64,000 bases of DNA. It comes from a virus. Both the position numbers and the translations under genes were made by a program. Shown piece after piece: positions 8,595-45,673 of this stretch (positions are counted from its first letter, which is position 1; every line of letters begins with the position of its first letter). A model generated the notes under the pieces. The model did no database searches and was not told the origin of the DNA. It saw nothing but the letters and a program-made list of their open reading frames with translations. The stretch lies in the IMG/VR virus record IMGVR_UViG_3300042197_000642, positions 31,796 to 95,795 of that record. One strand, given 5' to 3'.

Positions 8595-9277
8595 TACTCA
8601 GCTCCTATCCATACGGGAAAGTTAGGGTCTCCTGCTATAAACATTACCCAAACTATGGTTCCTGGTTGTGGTTTCCATTTTCCTATTAAGTTTATAGTAG
8701 CAATAATTCCTGGAGTTGCCGGCCCAATCCCTGCATTATCATGGCTTAAAAAGGTGTTGCTGTTACTTGCAGACGAGACAAATTGTATGTAATCCCCAGC
8801 ATCTAAGTCTAAAATTAATGATACGGTCATCGTTATTTCAGCGCCGCTTCCGGCTAATGTAATTTTGGTGTTGCTATCTGGAATGTCTATTCCGTTCTTT
8901 CTGTACCACATATTAGCAGTTCCAGTATTAGCGCTTGATTTAGTAAACATGCAAGAAAACTGAGCAAAGTAATCTCCTGTCTCTTCTACATAAATACGAG
9001 TTCCATCTAAGTAAGTTTTACTAGTGTCAAGCTCAAACCAGTTATTAACTACTGTAGGAGTATTAACCCCAATAGCTTGGTCTGCTATTGTGTAAAAAGT
9101 TCCATAAGGGTATTTAGACTGTCCAATACTTCCACTAGATGCCCTGACCCAATCAGTTACATTGTTGCCAAACAGTTGAGGAACTTTAATTCTTACACGC
9201 CCTTGACTTTCGGGGTCGTTAGAGTCAACAACTAAACCTTCGTATAATCCGTAATACCTGCGATCTGCATCTATCAT
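8594..9277 (-). CDS. baseplate gp5/gpV OB-fold protein with an inserted C1q/TNF-like domain
   Basis: YGLYEGLVVDSNDPESQGRVRIKVP...W and PQPGTIVWVMFIAGDPNFPVWIG. Likely start is MIDAD at 9277 (ATGA overlap with the hub gene). Confidence 0.8.
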   Translation of the reverse strand: MIDADRRYYGLYEGLVVDSNDPESQGRVRIKVPQLFGNNVTDWVRASSGSIGQSKYPYGTFYTIADQAIGVNTPTVVNNWFELDTSKTYLDGTRIYVEETGDYFAQFSCMFTKSSANTGTANMWYRKNGIDIPDSNTKITLAGSGAEITMTVSLILDLDAGDYIQFVSSASNSNTFLSHDNAGIGPATPGIIATINLIGKWKPQPGTIVWVMFIAGDPNFPVWIGAE

Positions 9278-10599
9278 TTTTTCAATAACCTTTTTATTAC
9301 AACCGGTGGTTTGTAGGAACTTGTAGGTTGAACTACTCTTAAGTCTCTTAAAGTACTGCTCCATTTAGGAGACATTGTTTGAGCCTTTTTATTATTTAGT
9401 TTGTTTAAAGATGAGTTAGATGTCTTTTTATAAAAACCGCTAACTTTTAATTTAGTTTTGTTTTTAGTTTTTGTGTTTCTAACATTTGGTTTTATAATTC
9501 TTTTTTCCTCAGAACTTGGGTTTTCAATTAATCCGAATCGATCCCAGTTGTTAGACTTTCCTAGAGCGTCAATACCTAATTCTAAAACTGTTGTATATAC
9601 TAAAGTGTTTATTCCTGTTCTTTCAATCTTATGTTCTAGCGATAAGATTACCCAGTACCCGCTATATTCAGAACCAACGCCAGAAAGGTATATAGGTAAA
9701 TCTGGTCTAAGATCTGGACTTCCTATTACTTCCGCATAACCTCGGTATCCAAAGCGTTGTCTTTCTTCAGCAGCTTTTGTTTCCCACATAGCAACTTCAG
9801 AGTTAGAAACTACTGTATTAACAGAAAATCTATCAAACTGTTCGGGAACAACATTCTTTCTAGAAGACCTTTTACTTTTTTGTTTTACATACTGAAGTTC
9901 AATTTTAGAAAACCTATCAACTCCGGCATAAGATAACGCAGATTTAGCATCATCTTCTTCATCTCCAAATTGTAGACTTTCTCCAATAATAGGTCTAAAA
10001 CTATAAGTGTCTGTTCCTCCTAAAGTTTCAACAGTGCTCATAGTAAATCTTTTTGCATAAGCTCTATTTTCAGAATAGTCTTTTGATAATGGATAGAAGT
10101 ATAAAGACGTGTTTTCTGCTCTTAAGGTATATCCTATTTTTTTAGCTAACCACACAAGCAATTGCCAGTCAGTTCTTCCGGCTTGAGCTATTTGAGAAAA
10201 CACTCTTTTATGAGGTTCAACAAAGTAAGAAAACTCATATTTACGAGCAATCTTTTTAAGAACTTGGTCTGCAGTTACATTTGTATAAATAGTTTGAGAT
10301 GTATTTTTCATAACGTAAGACGCTCCAATAATATGTACTTCTACACTTCGCTCTCCTGGAGAATATATTGGTTTTATATGATGTACATACCCGTTAAACG
10401 TTTTAGTAGATGAACCAAGAGTATTTAAAGTAATTACTACTGGAGACATAGGTTTTACGTCGTAATAGTCTACTTCCCAATCTTTAAATAATATTATTGT
10501 GTATTCATGCTCATATCTTGCTTGTTTTAAATTAAACTCGTATACTAAACTAGGTCCTGACACACTATATGGAAAGTCTACAGTTACATATTTAAACAT
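9274..10599 (-). CDS. baseplate hub protein (gpD/gp27-like)
   Basis: TADQVLKKIARKY, QAGRTDWQLL..LA, GSPDLRP, YSGYWVI..LEH. Confidence 0.8.
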   Translation of the reverse strand: MFKYVTVDFPYSVSGPSLVYEFNLKQARYEHEYTIILFKDWEVDYYDVKPMSPVVITLNTLGSSTKTFNGYVHHIKPIYSPGERSVEVHIIGASYVMKNTSQTIYTNVTADQVLKKIARKYEFSYFVEPHKRVFSQIAQAGRTDWQLLVWLAKKIGYTLRAENTSLYFYPLSKDYSENRAYAKRFTMSTVETLGGTDTYSFRPIIGESLQFGDEEDDAKSALSYAGVDRFSKIELQYVKQKSKRSSRKNVVPEQFDRFSVNTVVSNSEVAMWETKAAEERQRFGYRGYAEVIGSPDLRPDLPIYLSGVGSEYSGYWVILSLEHKIERTGINTLVYTTVLELGIDALGKSNNWDRFGLIENPSSEEKRIIKPNVRNTKTKNKTKLKVSGFYKKTSNSSLNKLNNKKAQTMSPKWSSTLRDLRVVQPTSSYKPPVVIKRLLKK

Positions 10600-18377: not shown

Positions 18378-18402
18378 GCAAAAGGCCCCCTTGCGGGGGC
18401 CT
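18378..18402 (-). terminator. intrinsic terminator
   Basis: AGGCCCCC-GCAA-GGGGGCCT followed by a T-run on the minus strand. Confidence 0.75.
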
Positions 18403-18442: not shown

Positions 18443-18583
18443 TTACTTTTTCTTTCTTACCATAGAAGACTTCTTCTTATTTGCAGGAGCACCCTTCTTT
18501 GCAGCAAACTTCTTGTTCGCTGCCTTCAGAGTCTTCATCCCGTGCTTGTCTTTTGGACGACCACAACCGCAAGTCGCGCACAT
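18443..18583 (-). CDS. Lys-rich peptide with N-terminal CxxCGC motif (copy 3)
   Basis: MCATCGCGRPKDKHGMKTLKAANKKFAAKKGAPANKKKSSMVRKKK*, TAATG-coupled; not in track. Confidence 0.75.
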   Translation of the reverse strand: MCATCGCGRPKDKHGMKTLKAANKKFAAKKGAPANKKKSSMVRKKK

Positions 18584-18720
18584 TACTTCTTCTTTTTCTT
18601 CTTGGCTTTACAATTTTTGCAAGTACAATTCTTACCTTTGGTGCATTTAGAAGTATTTGCTGCTGGAGCCTTTTTTGCAACCTTTTTAATGTTTCCCATA
18701 CAGCCGCAAGTAGCGCACAT
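18583..18720 (-). CDS. Lys/Cys-rich peptide with N-terminal CxxCGC motif (copy 2)
   Basis: MCATCGCMGNIKKVAKKAPAANTSKCTKGKNCTCKNCKAKKKKKK*, TAATG-coupled; not in track. Confidence 0.75.
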   Translation of the reverse strand: MCATCGCMGNIKKVAKKAPAANTSKCTKGKNCTCKNCKAKKKKKK

Positions 18721-18908
18721 TATTTCTTCTTCTTTCCACGTAGGGCAGCAAAATCAGAGCCCTCTAACTTGCCGTCTTTGTCTACATCTAACTTCTTTTG
18801 CTTAGACGACATGCCTTTTGAAGCAGACTTCTTAGCAGCTTTCTTCTTAGGTCCTTTGCCAAATCCTGGTTGACCTTTCTTTTTACCACAGCCACACATT
18901 GCGCACAT
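18720..18908 (-). CDS. Lys-rich peptide with N-terminal CxxCGC motif and EF-hand-like loop (copy 1)
   Basis: MCAMCGCGKKK...DVDKDGKLEGSDF. Confidence 0.75.
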   Translation of the reverse strand: MCAMCGCGKKKGQPGFGKGPKKKAAKKSASKGMSSKQKKLDVDKDGKLEGSDFAALRGKKKK

Positions 18909-18910
18909 AG

Positions 18911-19081
18911 TTACTTTCCTGTTCTCTTGTATCGGATAGTTGCTTTTGGTTTTCTAACGATTCCACCTTTTTTACGGCGAACCTTTGCTCCACCTGTATC
19001 GTACTTACTTCCGGTTAGAGCAATACTGACTGCCTTAGTAGGTTGTTTACCCACTGATTGACCAATTCGTTTTTTAGCCAT
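18911..19081 (-). CDS. small basic protein (56 aa)
   Basis: MAKKRIGQSVGKQPTKAVSIALTGSKYDTGGAKVRRKKGG...; AAAGG RBS; not in track. Confidence 0.6.
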   Translation of the reverse strand: MAKKRIGQSVGKQPTKAVSIALTGSKYDTGGAKVRRKKGGIVRKPKATIRYKRTGK

Positions 19082-19091
19082 TGTAACCTTT

Positions 19092-19604
19092 CTAAACTTG
19101 TGCGTAACTTAAAAACTGAGCGTCATTAACCATTTCATCAGGCATTACCTGTTGCATATCAACTGTAACAATAGTATATCTTTCAGAAACAATACCGGCG
19201 TTCTGAACTTTAAATGGACGGTATACCTGTCCTTTCCAGATCACACGGTCTCGTGTAGTTGCGTCTGTTGATGCAATAATTCCAGGGTTCATGCGCTCTA
19301 AGTCGTCTACGTTCATTGTTAGATGTAAAGTATCAGTATTGTAGAAACCGCGATCACTTTGTAAGACTTGACCTTGTGTAATAGTAGCTCTAATTACTGG
19401 AACTTTAACTGGAGATTTCCATACACGACCAGCTCCTACAGCCTCAACATCATAAAGAGAATCTTTTGTAGAAACGTCAGGCCTGTACACCCACCAGTCT
19501 GCCACAGTACCAGCAGGATTAGTTAAGTCTGAGGTAATACCATCACTAATTGAATCTAATTCAAAATCAGAATCAAAACGACCACCAGGGGTGTACCCAC
19601 GCAT
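19092..19604 (-). CDS. putative head closure/neck protein
   Basis: Beta-rich, with DRVIWKGQVY..; located in the morphogenesis region. Confidence 0.5.
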   Translation of the reverse strand: MRGYTPGGRFDSDFELDSISDGITSDLTNPAGTVADWWVYRPDVSTKDSLYDVEAVGAGRVWKSPVKVPVIRATITQGQVLQSDRGFYNTDTLHLTMNVDDLERMNPGIIASTDATTRDRVIWKGQVYRPFKVQNAGIVSERYTIVTVDMQQVMPDEMVNDAQFLSYAQV

Positions 19605-20668
19605 TAAATCTCCTCAGCAGTATAGAACTCTAGGTTACGCTTTAATCTTTCATCTGTGGGGTTGAGCTCAATTGCTTTTTTACCGTACTCTAAAGCTTTG
19701 TTTCTATTACCTAAATGGTATTGGCTTAGCGCAGCAAAGTCGTATGGGTTTGGCCCCCAAGCAAACTCTTCACATAAATAGTCTAAAGGTTTTTCTTTAA
19801 TACTTAACGCGGCTTCAGCCATCTTAAGACAAGAACCCCAAATCTCTTCTTTGTAATAAAGTTCCGACAACTCTACTAAAGCTTCTCTTCTTGTTGGGTC
19901 TTCATTATGCGCTTTTAGTAACCACTCTTCTTTTACCGTAAAATTATCATCCATTTTTGCTATGTACCTCATAGAAGCGGCTCGTTCAGGTTTCCATACA
20001 GCTGTTTGTAAACTTAAATGCCTTTTAAACTCTTTTGTTGATTCTTCGTATTGACCATAGAAATATAGCTCTCTTGCATAATAAAATGCATTTCTATCAT
20101 TAAATGGGTTTTCTATAGTAGACACCTTTAGTAAAGGAAGGTACTGACTTCTAGGTTTTGAGTTATCAGCTTTATGATGTATTTCTAGCTCAGTCCACTC
20201 TTGGGTTTCTACAAAACCATGTGCGGGCGCTACTACTTCATGCACTGGATGCTTCCAAATATAACCAAATCTAGTATGTATCTTTTCTCCACTAAACTGA
20301 AGTCCCGGACTTCCATCTTGATTAAAGTTCCAAGTAAACTTGTATCTTGGTCTTGTAATATTTAACTTAAATACTTTTTCTAACTCCGGTCTCCAACCAT
20401 CTACCAATAGCTCATCCATGTCCAAAGCAATACAATAATCAATATCATTAGGTAAAACGGCTAAAGATACGTTTCTAGCAACATCAAATCGCCATGGGTT
20501 TATAAAAGATTTAACTACAACTATTCCTAAGGATTCTGCAATTTCAACTGTTTTGTCTGTAGAACCTGTATCTAGTATTAAATGATAATCTGCATCTTTT
20601 GAAGACTCATACCAACGTTTAACAAATTGCTCTTCATTTAGAGCTATGGTGTATACGGCTATCTTCAC
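19604..20668 (-). CDS. family 2 glycosyltransferase with C-terminal TPR repeats
   Basis: IAVYTIALNEE, LDTGSTDKT, WRFDVARN, LDMDE, VHE, followed by TPR-like helices. Confidence 0.9.
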   Translation of the reverse strand: MKIAVYTIALNEEQFVKRWYESSKDADYHLILDTGSTDKTVEIAESLGIVVVKSFINPWRFDVARNVSLAVLPNDIDYCIALDMDELLVDGWRPELEKVFKLNITRPRYKFTWNFNQDGSPGLQFSGEKIHTRFGYIWKHPVHEVVAPAHGFVETQEWTELEIHHKADNSKPRSQYLPLLKVSTIENPFNDRNAFYYARELYFYGQYEESTKEFKRHLSLQTAVWKPERAASMRYIAKMDDNFTVKEEWLLKAHNEDPTRREALVELSELYYKEEIWGSCLKMAEAALSIKEKPLDYLCEEFAWGPNPYDFAALSQYHLGNRNKALEYGKKAIELNPTDERLKRNLEFYTAEEI

Positions 20669-20686: not shown

Positions 20687-20833
20687 CTATTCTTCTAAGG
20701 ATGCTAACTCTTCGTTAGCCGCAGATGGGCTTACGTGGTCGTACCCAATGATTTCATTTGTTTCGCTATCACGAACCTCAAATACCTCGACGCCACTTGG
20801 CTCTACTCTAATACTTGTTTTTATTACTGACAT
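20687..20833 (-). CDS. small acidic protein (48 aa), possible fibre chaperone
   Basis: MSVIKTSIRVEPSGVEVFEVRDSETNEIIGYD..., TAATG-coupled; not in track. Confidence 0.5.
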   Translation of the reverse strand: MSVIKTSIRVEPSGVEVFEVRDSETNEIIGYDHVSPSAANEELASLEE

Positions 20834-21666
20834 TATGAGAACCTTCCCCAGAAAGCCGTTTGACCGGCGGTTGGTGTTATTGTTGTTGGTAGGTCAGATT
20901 GAGATGATGCAAAAGAACGAAGTATTGGGTTTAAGCTAACCATAGAAACTGGGATTAAACCCGCACCAGCTAAGTAAGCGTTTCCAGGAGTACCACCTAC
21001 AACAATGATACCTAGGGCGTATCTAAGACCACGTTGAATAGTGTAAGCGGATGGAAAGCCTCCGGTAGTATTAAATGATCTAGTGTAAAGAGTATTTACT
21101 GCACTAAAAATAGTAGTGTCGTTTGCGGTACGTGCTACCAGTGTTAGCTGACCTGTTGTTTCATTTACTGTGTACAAACCAAATCTAATTAGAGATGCAC
21201 CTGTCGTTACGACACCAGCTGAAGACACGCTAATATTGCTTACGTTTACTGTGTTCATATGAGTAAAGTATGTAAAATATGCAGTTCCAGATGTAATAAG
21301 AGCGTTACCAGTAGAGTATCTTGGAGTTACATCTACCGCATCGATTCCGTATCCAAGGTTATCTTCTAAGTTTTCTGTTACCACATAGTGTTCATCAAGC
21401 GTTGTTTTTAAAGCATTTACGTCTAAGGCAACTGTTTGTGTTGGGCTATCGTATGTAATTGGTGAAGTTGCTACTGCTATCCCAGCGGGTCCAGTAGGGC
21501 CAGTTGGTCCGGTTGGACCTGTATCACCTATGTCGCCTTGAGGACCTGTTGGTCCAACTGCGCTTGTACGAACAAGACGCCAAGCAGTTCCAGTCCATTG
21601 GTATGTTTGACCTAAATAAGAGTACGTCTGACCACTCGTCGGTGAACTTGGAAAATCAATAGGCAT
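20833..21666 (-). CDS. fibre protein with a short collagen segment and a C-terminal beta domain
   Basis: MPIDFPSSP N-terminus; GPT triplets. Confidence 0.7.
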   Translation of the reverse strand: MPIDFPSSPTSGQTYSYLGQTYQWTGTAWRLVRTSAVGPTGPQGDIGDTGPTGPTGPTGPAGIAVATSPITYDSPTQTVALDVNALKTTLDEHYVVTENLEDNLGYGIDAVDVTPRYSTGNALITSGTAYFTYFTHMNTVNVSNISVSSAGVVTTGASLIRFGLYTVNETTGQLTLVARTANDTTIFSAVNTLYTRSFNTTGGFPSAYTIQRGLRYALGIIVVGGTPGNAYLAGAGLIPVSMVSLNPILRSFASSQSDLPTTITPTAGQTAFWGRFS

Positions 21667-21676
21667 TTATATCTCC

Positions 21677-23343
<1,667 letters not shown>

Positions 23344-23344
<1 letters not shown>

Positions 23345-23634
23345 TAGTCGTTTACCCCTCCACAATCAACTGGGTCTAACCCACCGTATTCACTAGTTGG
23401 CGTTCCAGCATCTACGTTTTGAAACAATGGACCTTGTGCTCCAGTTGGACCAGTTACTCCTTGAGAGCCCGTAGGCCCAGTAGGTCCCTGAGTTCCTTGT
23501 GGACCGGTTGGTCCTGTAGGACCGACAACTTGTGTGGTTTTAATTAACCAAACACTGCCATCCCAATACCATGTATGGGTGCCAACAGTAAACTCTTCAT
23601 TTAGTGCTGGACTATTTGGAAAGTCTATTGGCAT
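23344..23634 (-). CDS. short collagen-like fibre protein
   Basis: [10 protein letters not shown]-terminus shared with 20833..21666; 11 GXY triplets. Confidence 0.7.
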
Positions 23635-31600: not shown

Positions 31601-31945
31601 TTCGTATTGAATACCATCAACAAACTGTGACCAGTATGTAGCATTTGGTGGAGTAATGTTTACGCTGTTTGCAATAGCAATATAAACTTTACCACCATGC
31701 GCAACACCATCACCAACTTGATAGCTAGTTCCTGAAACATATGGTCCTTCAAAGTTAATGCCTCTTAGCATTAATGACCAGTAAGCTACATCAGTTGGTA
31801 GGTTACCAGCAGCTGAAATTACGGAAATGTAAACGTATACGTTACCGCCATACTTTACAACATCGTTAACTTCATATGTAGTTGAGTTGTTATACTCACC
31901 GGCAAAAAAGAAACGCAGTTTGCCTAAATCAATAAGTTGCGGCAT
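28697..31945 (-). CDS. large tail fibre with CBM5/12-like repeats
   Basis: About six repeats of Y..NDVV.YGG..Y...P....W at the N-terminus; duplicated internal modules; HATRKDYVD near the end. Confidence 0.7.
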   Translation of the reverse strand: MPQLIDLGKLRFFFAGEYNNSTTYEVNDVVKYGGNVYVYISVISAAGNLPTDVAYWSLMLRGINFEGPYVSGTSYQVGDGVAHGGKVYIAIANSVNITPPNATYWSQFVDGIQYEGSYNGSTTYQKNDVVKYGGKAYIAKVDGAGNLPTNTTYWDKFVDGIAASGVYNNGTNYVPGDVVAYGANTFTCILETTGNVPTNTTYWQAFSGGISYRSEWAGTTQYYPNDVVNRGGKTYIALLAHISSGTFSADLAEAKWQAFNGGIRVTGDFTASTPYLTGDLAFDGVDTYIANQDFTSGASIAADSTKWDLFAQGADYLPGQVGNAGKILGTDGTDPFWGYEVNKLYVSDSATVADSAEEFETDAGLTDATAVFVDTSTNYTQIAYKNEGQGTESSADIIVYSDQGNNDEGFIDVGIANSMFDSETFGITGPNDGYIFVQGVPSKTRTVTNSVLNSNVVTLTTSAAHGFKSGLPVVITGLASAYNGTYTITGTPTTTTFTYAKTNANIAAASGLSGQAVQGYGNGDLVLATGDGGERNAIVFAAGGFSSGNEQVTIMPDQNVHIEIATPSTSPSTGALTIVGGVGVQGDMFMAGDLSVESGGIIARDALFVGADAPEQAENVGTNVKTVSFKSRDASNVATLTTTAAHNFAPFMLVTVAIGDATFDGEIEVIDVPTATTFTYSSTGSLVANTVVASGTASQVPGFTNPMAVFVADADDYAQLVVQNIGTDPNSSSDFIAYANNGDDFSGYIDMGITSENFADPEFTITGGNDGYIFMDAPQGTTGSGNLVFATGGRGTENKIVFAAGGLSSDNTQMVITPDLNIHIEIPTASISPTTGALTVVGGVGIQGDVYIQGTISFGGSGTTVSTANLSVTDPLIFVGADNPQNNFELGLVAEYALVTTIDPTATVTAVSVSSNLATFALTYPGGVLPEEKFRVNDSVVITGVNGTFNGTYAVAAVGTSSITVNLTTADTTLTGLSGAANATNVYRPKYAGLAKDNTDGKWKLFSELDTRPTGGTINFAGVTFDAFKAGATEVTTLAASTSASAPFVSITNALPTAASHATRKDYVDNVTFAHPFMMAAL

Positions 31946-45386: not shown

Positions 45387-45673
45387 TGAAGACTATAGCC
45401 CCGTATTTTGATGGAACTCAGTTGTGTGCCCAGACAGATCCGGAGCTCTTCTTCCCCTCTAGTCCTGTATTGACAGTTAAACATAAGCGTTTAACTAAAC
45501 CAATATGCGATGCCTGCCACTTTAAGTCAGAGTGTTTAGATTACGCTGTGACAACTAATGTGTCTGGTATTTGGGCTAATACGAGCGATAACGATAGGCG
45601 ATTAATACGTAGGAAGCGTGGCTTGCCTGCACCGTCAACCGTTGGTTCACTAATAACTAAACTAGTGAGCTAA
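45386..45673 (+). CDS. whiB: WhiB-family transcription factor
   Basis: CAQTDPELFF...CDAC...CLDYA...GIWANTSDNDRR: four Cys plus a GIW turn. Confidence 0.9.
   Translation: MKTIAPYFDGTQLCAQTDPELFFPSSPVLTVKHKRLTKPICDACHFKSECLDYAVTTNVSGIWANTSDNDRRLIRRKRGLPAPSTVGSLITKLVS

Follow-up and report, generated by a model that had tools for sequence, protein, structure and literature searches.

Lysine-rich microproteins of actinophages that open with the N-terminal motif of HypB

The myovirus-type genome of about 96 kb recorded in IMG/VR as IMGVR_UViG_3300042197_000642 almost certainly encodes three small lysine-rich peptides that each begin with M-C-x-x-C-G-C, a candidate metal-binding head with which HypB, a protein of hydrogenase maturation, also begins. 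These headed peptides are members of a large modular family of phage microproteins, abundant enough to comprise hundreds of clusters in several lineages, in which the head is a portable module, obligatorily N-terminal. The carriers are WhiB-encoding actinophages of several lineages, to which the head is restricted, and an MCATCGCG octapeptide in a cellular genome is in practice a signature of HypB. New here are the modularity of the family, the strictness of the N-terminal position, the actinophage carriers, the HypB-signature octapeptide, and the accessory status of the peptides. Microproteins of fewer than 70 aa routinely escape gene callers. Positions given without another identifier are those of the window, which is the whole stretch of 64,000 nucleotides analyzed (positions 31,796 to 95,795 of the record).

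The gene cassette and the selection on it

The headed peptides are the products of three minus-strand ORFs of 62, 45 and 46 aa, spanning 18908..18443 and each opening with MCxxCGC (Table 1). The original prediction, which described three coupled ORFs with the starts MCAMCGCG, MCATCGCM and MCATCGCG and a terminator behind them, is confirmed: the 62/45 and 45/46 junctions are both TAATG overlaps, and a hairpin closes the cassette. The 62-aa ORF starts with an ATG 2 nt past the stop of the 56-aa ORF, with AGGAAAG ahead of it. Two of the three headed genes are missing from the ORF track, as had been pointed out. The peptides are as Lys-rich as claimed (net charge +15 each), have two Asp/Glu residues in total outside the Ca-loop-like motif, and contain 3, 7 and 3 Cys (62-, 45- and 46-aa peptides, respectively); the Cys of the 45-aa peptide make up 16% of its residues and include the predicted CxxxxxCxCxxC at residues 26-37. 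The pattern ATG-TGY-N6-TGY-GGN-TGY occurs three times in the window, at the same three places in the whole 95.8 kb record, and not once in 100 shuffles. The long plus-strand ORFs over the cassette are mirror products of its Lys codons.

Table 1. Positions of the features of the small-gene cassette in the window
Feature	Position	Strand	Evidence
Basic 56-aa peptide, net charge +17, first gene of the cassette, without the Cys head	19081..18911	-	Kept in 13/13 relatives
62-aa microprotein: MCAMCGCG head, Gly/Lys-rich linker, EF-hand/dockerin-like loop, poly-Lys end	18908..18720	-	ORF, alignment, AlphaFold, profile
Head 1, codons 1-7 of the 62-aa gene, M-C-A-M-C-G-C	18908..18888	-	DNA pattern match
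Ca-loop-like motif, 12 residues, positions 41-52 of the 62-aa peptide	18788..18753	-	Pfam sub-threshold, PDB profile
45-aa microprotein: MCATCGCM head, Lys-rich linker, C-terminal Cys cluster, poly-Lys end	18720..18583	-	ORF
Head 2, start of the 45-aa gene	18720..18700	-	DNA pattern match
Cys cluster C-x5-C-x-C-x2-C, residues 26-37 of the 45-aa peptide	18645..18610	-	ORF and comparison with relatives
46-aa microprotein: MCATCGCG head, conserved body P-K-D-K-H-G-M-K-T-L..A-N-K-K-F	18583..18443	-	Protein clusters, dN/dS
Head 3, start of the 46-aa gene	18583..18563	-	DNA pattern match
Leftover 3' end of a deleted 86-aa Lys/Glu-rich gene, intact in L004	18442..18408	-	Alignment with L004
Intrinsic terminator hairpin: 8 bp stem with 7 GC pairs, T-rich tail; closes the cassette	18402..18383	-	

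Comparative genomics indicates that the cassette is conserved. Thirteen related viral contigs, fetched via the neighboring 170-aa protein (52-93% identity), all have a coupled cassette of small Lys-rich genes at the corresponding site and encode one or two headed peptides apiece, and those that apparently lack the ATG keep the head behind a GTG overlapping the upstream TAG. Genomes of the window's clade encode from one to three headed peptides. Orthologs of the 62-aa peptide are 90-98% identical in L004-L008. The 46-aa peptide has 162 clusters, all without a name, in a collection of 5.8 billion proteins, carried on contigs that reach about 180 kb and in many cases measure 92-103 kb; of the best 120 of these 162 clusters, 113 start with MC[AST]TCGC, and most of the exceptions are mis-called starts. 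The bodies are under purifying selection, with dN/dS ratios of 0.089 (the 46-aa type) and 0.129 by the Nei-Gojobori method (52 and 43 distinct genes), and synonymous sites in the same two gene sets are near-saturated (pS 0.58-0.71). Synonymous codons are mixed in the head, each Cys position showing both Cys codons and each Gly position three or four of the Gly codons; selection thus evidently acts on the protein rather than on an RNA or DNA element. The case for the 45-aa peptide is weaker than that for its two neighbors: it is nearly without orthologs, a search having returned its own genome and one 53%-identical homolog of the same architecture, and it resembles a recently formed mosaic of modules present elsewhere.

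That the headed ORFs go unexpressed, the motif being due to chance or to a nucleotide-level feature, is scarcely credible: gene callers do often miss or shorten such ORFs, and database versions of these microproteins are truncated, but the three pattern matches against none in the shuffles, the hundreds of conserved orthologs, the dN/dS near 0.1 and the mixed synonymous codons of the head all stand against it. The original prediction had named three findings that would count against it, among them a motif not conserved in related phages and peptides that are not translated; the motif is kept in 13/13 relatives and the genes are under purifying selection, so these two fall away.

Of the 86-aa gene that is intact in L004 (L004:2811-3071), the last 11 codons and the stop survive in the window (18442-18408, minus strand). 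By comparison with L004, the gene was lost through a deletion between Lys-codon repeats, and the same deletion altered the end of the 46-aa peptide, which reads ..R-K-K-K in the window and ..R-K-K-G-M in the relatives. A Cys-rich micro-ORF of 18 aa (L005:3067-3123) is joined via TAATG to the end of the 46-aa gene of L005; the C-x-x-C-G-C-G string that it contains is not N-terminal.

The head, its bodies and the link to HypB

Scans of IMG/VR with DNA patterns returned at least 120 and at least 119 stretches, whose loci were then parsed to give at least 216 distinct headed peptides of 22-85 aa. Invariance of the head is true by construction in this set, because the DNA patterns fixed the head positions, and is free of that bias only in the 46-aa-type protein clusters and in the alignment of loop peptides. 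The bodies attached to the head include a Gly/Lys linker with the Ca-loop-like motif, the P-K-D-K-H-G body of the 46-aa peptide, and Cys-rich extended heads (up to 9 Cys per 25 residues) that stand alone or precede a Lys/Asp/Ala-rich body; others have inserted mini-modules of the form C-T-C-x2-C-K-x-C, and the Cys-cluster mini-module of the 45-aa peptide is also inserted in peptides of L007, L059, L114 and L032. Six or more Cys are present in 49 of the 216 distinct peptides among the matches listed, and 35 of the 216 (about 1 in 6), likewise among the matches listed, have a K+R content below 25%; their bodies are neutral or acidic, with abundant Tyr, His, Asn and Asp.

In a scan without a start-codon requirement, ATG or GTG directly precedes 104 of the 122 C-A-T-C-G-C-G matches listed, and the remainder are mostly out-of-frame chance occurrences with stops nearby, one being inside an open reading frame. 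A site that coordinates through the free alpha-amine would require just such a strict N-terminal position. The sole large headed protein seen is one of 248 aa (L112:367-1113), with a nine-Cys extended head at its N-terminus and no family. Longer fused forms were pursued as a clue to function and dropped, just two read-through joins of adjacent microgenes having turned up; these (P0162 and P0163) have Gln at the stop position and are either natural stop-to-sense variants or artifacts of assembly or gene calling. Five unrelated contigs (L139, L150, L151, L154 and L184) share an identical stretch around a chance C-A-T-C-G-C-G, with stops in frame, which may be a conserved non-coding or RNA element.

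The likeness to HypB that had been noted is accurate, and stronger than was claimed. Among 185,579 prokaryotes (one genome per species), the DNA pattern for MCATCGCG is found at 92 places, and about 80 of the 92 ORFs resemble full-length HypB, with a His-rich tract and a GTPase P-loop; most are from Nocardia, Rhodococcus, Arthrobacter and other Actinobacteria, and one from Rhodococcus was verified as HypB (TIGR00073, E 2.4e-83). Just one of the 92 places, in a MAG contig of 2.3 kb, has a phage-type peptide. The phage peptides have M-C-x-x-C-G-C directly after the start codon, like the HypB N-terminal prefix, and the corresponding model (NF053667, HypB_prefix_1) gives peptides 1 and 3 of the window 20.2 and 20.8 bits (E 1.2e-3 and 7.7e-4) against a cut-off of 30, the genuine Rhodococcus HypB likewise staying below the cut-off at 21.5 bits. 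The 45-aa peptide has no match to this model, and the phage peptides of 45-62 aa have none to the GTPase domain (TIGR00073 / CobW-HypB-UreG).

In HypB the motif coordinates Ni(II) at picomolar affinity, the N-terminal amine together with Cys2, Cys5 and Cys7 making up a square-planar site, and an isolated short peptide with the motif binds Ni and Zn (PMC12284835), in agreement with the original description of the N-terminal CxxCGC as a Ni(II)/Zn(II) site. Given the identity to HypB, the phage head is by sequence a known minimal metal-binding peptide, and it probably binds metal itself. Because the head is one of the best-characterized peptides of this kind, its function is directly testable with synthetic peptides. 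No literature linking CxxCGC to phages was found among papers using the term.

The predicted EF-hand-like loop of the 62-aa peptide (D-V-D-K-D-G-K-L-E-G-S-D) is present and is supported at the level of the motif. Its scores are 18.2 with Pfam Dockerin_1 (PF00404, E 0.0029, cut-off 22.9) and 14.4 with EF-hand_1 (PF00036, E 0.028, cut-off 25.4). A profile of 24 loop-bearing peptides matched an EF-hand or dockerin, always at the loop, in 40/40 PDB matches (best E 0.0032), and D41, G46, L48 and D52 are invariant in the alignment. An AlphaFold2 model of low confidence (mean pLDDT 56.6) leaves residues 1-33 unstructured and predicts helices at 35-44 and 50-61 (pLDDT 60-75) on either side of the loop, which may bind Ca2+ or mediate Ca-dependent pairing.

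Genomic context and carrier phages

Downstream of the cassette are genes for the tail sheath, the tube, a T4 gp15-like sheath stabilizer, the baseplate hub and the tape measure, and upstream are collagen-like fibers and a glycosyltransferase. The cassette lies between the sheath-stabilizer, sheath and tube genes and, on the opposite side, a 170-aa protein without a family; its assignment to the 'head-neck region' was thus roughly right. In other carriers the headed genes adjoin the major head protein, an HslV-like peptidase, the terminase or the neck/sheath module, depending on the lineage.

The upstream glycosyltransferase (19604-20668, minus strand) is a GT2 enzyme fused to TPR repeats (PHROG 13126, E 2.6e-112). 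It lies two genes away and its architecture recalls peptide S-glycosyltransferases, but it was rejected as a partner of the headed peptides on account of inconsistent association: homologs occur near headed peptides in several lineages, within 5 kb at 3/14 and 4/11 of the loci with enough flank, and the enzyme is absent from the cultured 'Ca. Planktophila' phages described below. Also rejected were a RiPP precursor (no modifying enzymes nearby, no leader peptide, and a motif that is N-terminal) and a lipoprotein-type N-terminal Cys (no signal peptide). Upstream of the glycosyltransferase are two collagen-repeat tail-fiber-like genes of 277 and 562 aa (20833-23365, minus strand), and between 22 and 24 kb the GC content climbs to 0.49.

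WhiB is an accepted marker for phages of Actinobacteria (PMC10202952, PMC10914622), and the two WhiB genes of the record (about 45419-45601, plus strand, and G000:C1:21544-21768, minus strand, outside the window) mark the phage as an actinophage. They place the host no more finely than Actinomycetota, the best match (69%) coming from a short contig in the bin of a Rhodoluna MAG. By tail sheath the closest cultured phages are Streptomyces phages (37-38% identity), and in the one examined, pSt2308, no small-gene cassette is annotated at the corresponding position. Among the matches listed, 179 loci plausibly encode headed peptides, 127 in the window's myovirus clade and 52 in other lineages; WhiB is present in 4/5 tested records from the other lineages, the fifth of which is a 19%-complete fragment. 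The carriers probably infect dominant freshwater actinobacteria.

The only phages of 'Ca. Planktophila' in culture, LanE43-AprE7 and LanE43-AprF5 (E7 and F5), have relatives among the carriers: one lineage shares with them a cassette of small basic proteins after the major head protein (the 85-aa member is 89% identical). No headed peptide is encoded anywhere in the genomes of E7 and F5; headed peptides are therefore accessory and are not needed to build a virion. In the Planktophila-phage-like contigs L024 (1787-2491) and L033 (reverse strand, 9146-9709), an HslV/proteasome-like Ntn peptidase (PHROG 1040) abuts the headed gene on its upstream side and could be a processing enzyme. A thioredoxin gene is found near the headed peptide in L086.

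Database searches gave the peptides no name. Pfam and PHROGs have no family for them, the ESM Atlas returned nothing other than low-score clusters without a name, and a PDB sequence search with the 46-aa peptide had no match. GenBank phages have no match to the region as DNA or to two of the peptides as protein, and no headed peptides were found in cultured GenBank phages.

Possible functions and comparison with known systems

The reading preferred here, plausible though short of an even chance, is that disordered polycations with a metal-thiolate head act at a late stage, probably on phage DNA in or near the capsid. Removal of Met1 would expose a free alpha-amine that, with the thiolates of Cys2, Cys5 and Cys7, would most likely hold one thiophilic metal ion. 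The likeliest metal in vivo would be Zn(II), with Ni(II) or Cu(I) possible; nickel is scarce in cells and normally arrives via delivery proteins, so that a HypB-type Ni site may not form in vivo. The bodies are short, apparently mostly disordered and mostly polylysine, and may have mini-modules such as a single EF-hand/dockerin-type loop, a Cys4 cluster or a conserved His. Presumably expressed together with head and packaging genes, peptides with a charge of +15 would bind nucleic acid late in infection and would probably enter the capsid with the DNA as internal, charge-neutralizing components, and metal or disulfide bridges between heads could make them multivalent, like protamines or the retroviral nucleocapsid protein.

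That the peptides are packaged DNA condensers is possible but doubtful; a purely DNA-condensing role leaves the neutral or acidic peptides, about 1 in 6, unexplained. These members, together with the dispensability seen in E7 and F5, lend some weight to three alternatives: an address label, an effect on host metals and a purely redox role. If packaged, they would bear on the neutralization of phage DNA charge in the capsid and on the metals in virions. A bolder and somewhat unlikely extension is that the tip of HypB has been turned into a portable module on shuffling, genome-packed microproteins that serve as metal- or redox-switched, protamine-like condensers. These would be locked outside the cell and freed in the reducing cytoplasm, and might also bring a load of trace metal into the host; if so, they would constitute a new class of virion components and give the first example of the HypB site standing alone in a role other than hydrogenase maturation.

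It is distinctly unlikely that the head is mainly an address label, comparable to the capsid-targeting sequence of the T4 internal proteins, directing diverse small cargo peptides into the procapsid, docking perhaps via a shared metal on the scaffold, portal or protease and being cut off later. One invariant tag on many unrelated bodies, non-basic ones included, fits such a label, as do the plasticity of the cassettes (gain, loss, deletion and mosaics) and the location of the genes in head modules, right behind the HslV-like peptidase in L024 and L033. However, no cleavage motif is evident behind the head, identity to a characterized metal site would be superfluous for a pure label, and E7 and F5 assemble without headed peptides.

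Manipulation of host metal handling, by peptides that act late in infection as decoys of the HypB prefix or as Ni/Zn/Cu sponges, is improbable. The octapeptide is identical to that of actinobacterial HypB and the carriers are actinophages, many members are metallothionein-like (up to 9 Cys in 25 residues), and a variant in which partners of the HypB N-terminus such as SlyD are engaged would fit with the N-terminal extension of HypB being the region that SlyD contacts (PMC12284835). Against this, the genes belong to late structural operons and not to early or host-takeover regions, and a decoy needs no extreme positive charge. [NiFe]-hydrogenases are not known as a feature of streamlined freshwater actinobacteria, which also weighs against an effect on host metals. 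Peptides active in the cell would be a new phage route to disturb host metal handling.

Quite improbable is a head that acts by metal-free thiol chemistry or carries an Fe-S cluster. Three close Cys on polycations, the extra Cys modules in many members and the thioredoxin gene of L086 agree with intermolecular disulfides that would lock condensed DNA outside the cell, on the analogy of protamine, and be reduced after injection, but the invariant Gly6 and the strict N-terminal position favor the amine-plus-three-thiolate geometry of HypB over generic disulfides.

The headed peptides share features with several known systems. Bacterial metallothioneins resemble the extended-head members, which have 6-9 Cys in about 25 residues, CxC/CxxC arrays and few aromatics; the window peptides differ in having just 3, 7 and 3 Cys and long Lys tails, and headed peptides have no match to the Pfam/NCBIfam metallothionein models. 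The loop of the 62-aa peptide fits the EF-hand/dockerin pattern D-x-[DN]-x-[DN]-G-x-[ILV]-x3-[DE], with flanking helices predicted and, as in dockerins, Asp at position 12, but unlike EF-hands (PF00036 / PF13499) it is single and unpaired, all of its Pfam scores are sub-threshold, and its acidic residues are lost in some relatives.

The internal proteins of T4 are otherwise unrelated but have a common capsid-targeting sequence. Like the headed peptides, T4 IPI-III are small proteins of a plastic cluster that share an N-terminal tag and are produced alongside the head proteins. The two groups are unrelated in sequence, however: the tag of T4 lacks Cys and is removed by the prohead protease, and the T4 proteins are basic and packaged with DNA, whereas packaging of the phage peptides is proposed from the position of their genes in head modules. 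Protamines and the retroviral nucleocapsid protein NCp7 are nucleic-acid condensers, a role that is proposed for the phage peptides; the latter are Lys-rich instead of Arg-rich, lack the CCHC knuckle spacing and have their site at the extreme N-terminus, but are alike in their size (45-62 aa), in their strong positive charge, and in combining a Cys-based site, putatively for metal or disulfides, with a tail that would condense nucleic acid (PMC11209390 for the nucleocapsid protein). The phage peptides differ from HypB in having no GTPase domain, His-rich stretch or hydrogenase gene context, being stand-alone peptides of 22-85 aa, mostly polylysine, in head/packaging modules; what they have in common with its prefix is the first 7-8 residues (MCATCGCG both in HypB of actinobacteria and in the majority of the phage peptides), the strictly N-terminal position, the invariant Gly6 and an intrinsically disordered context.
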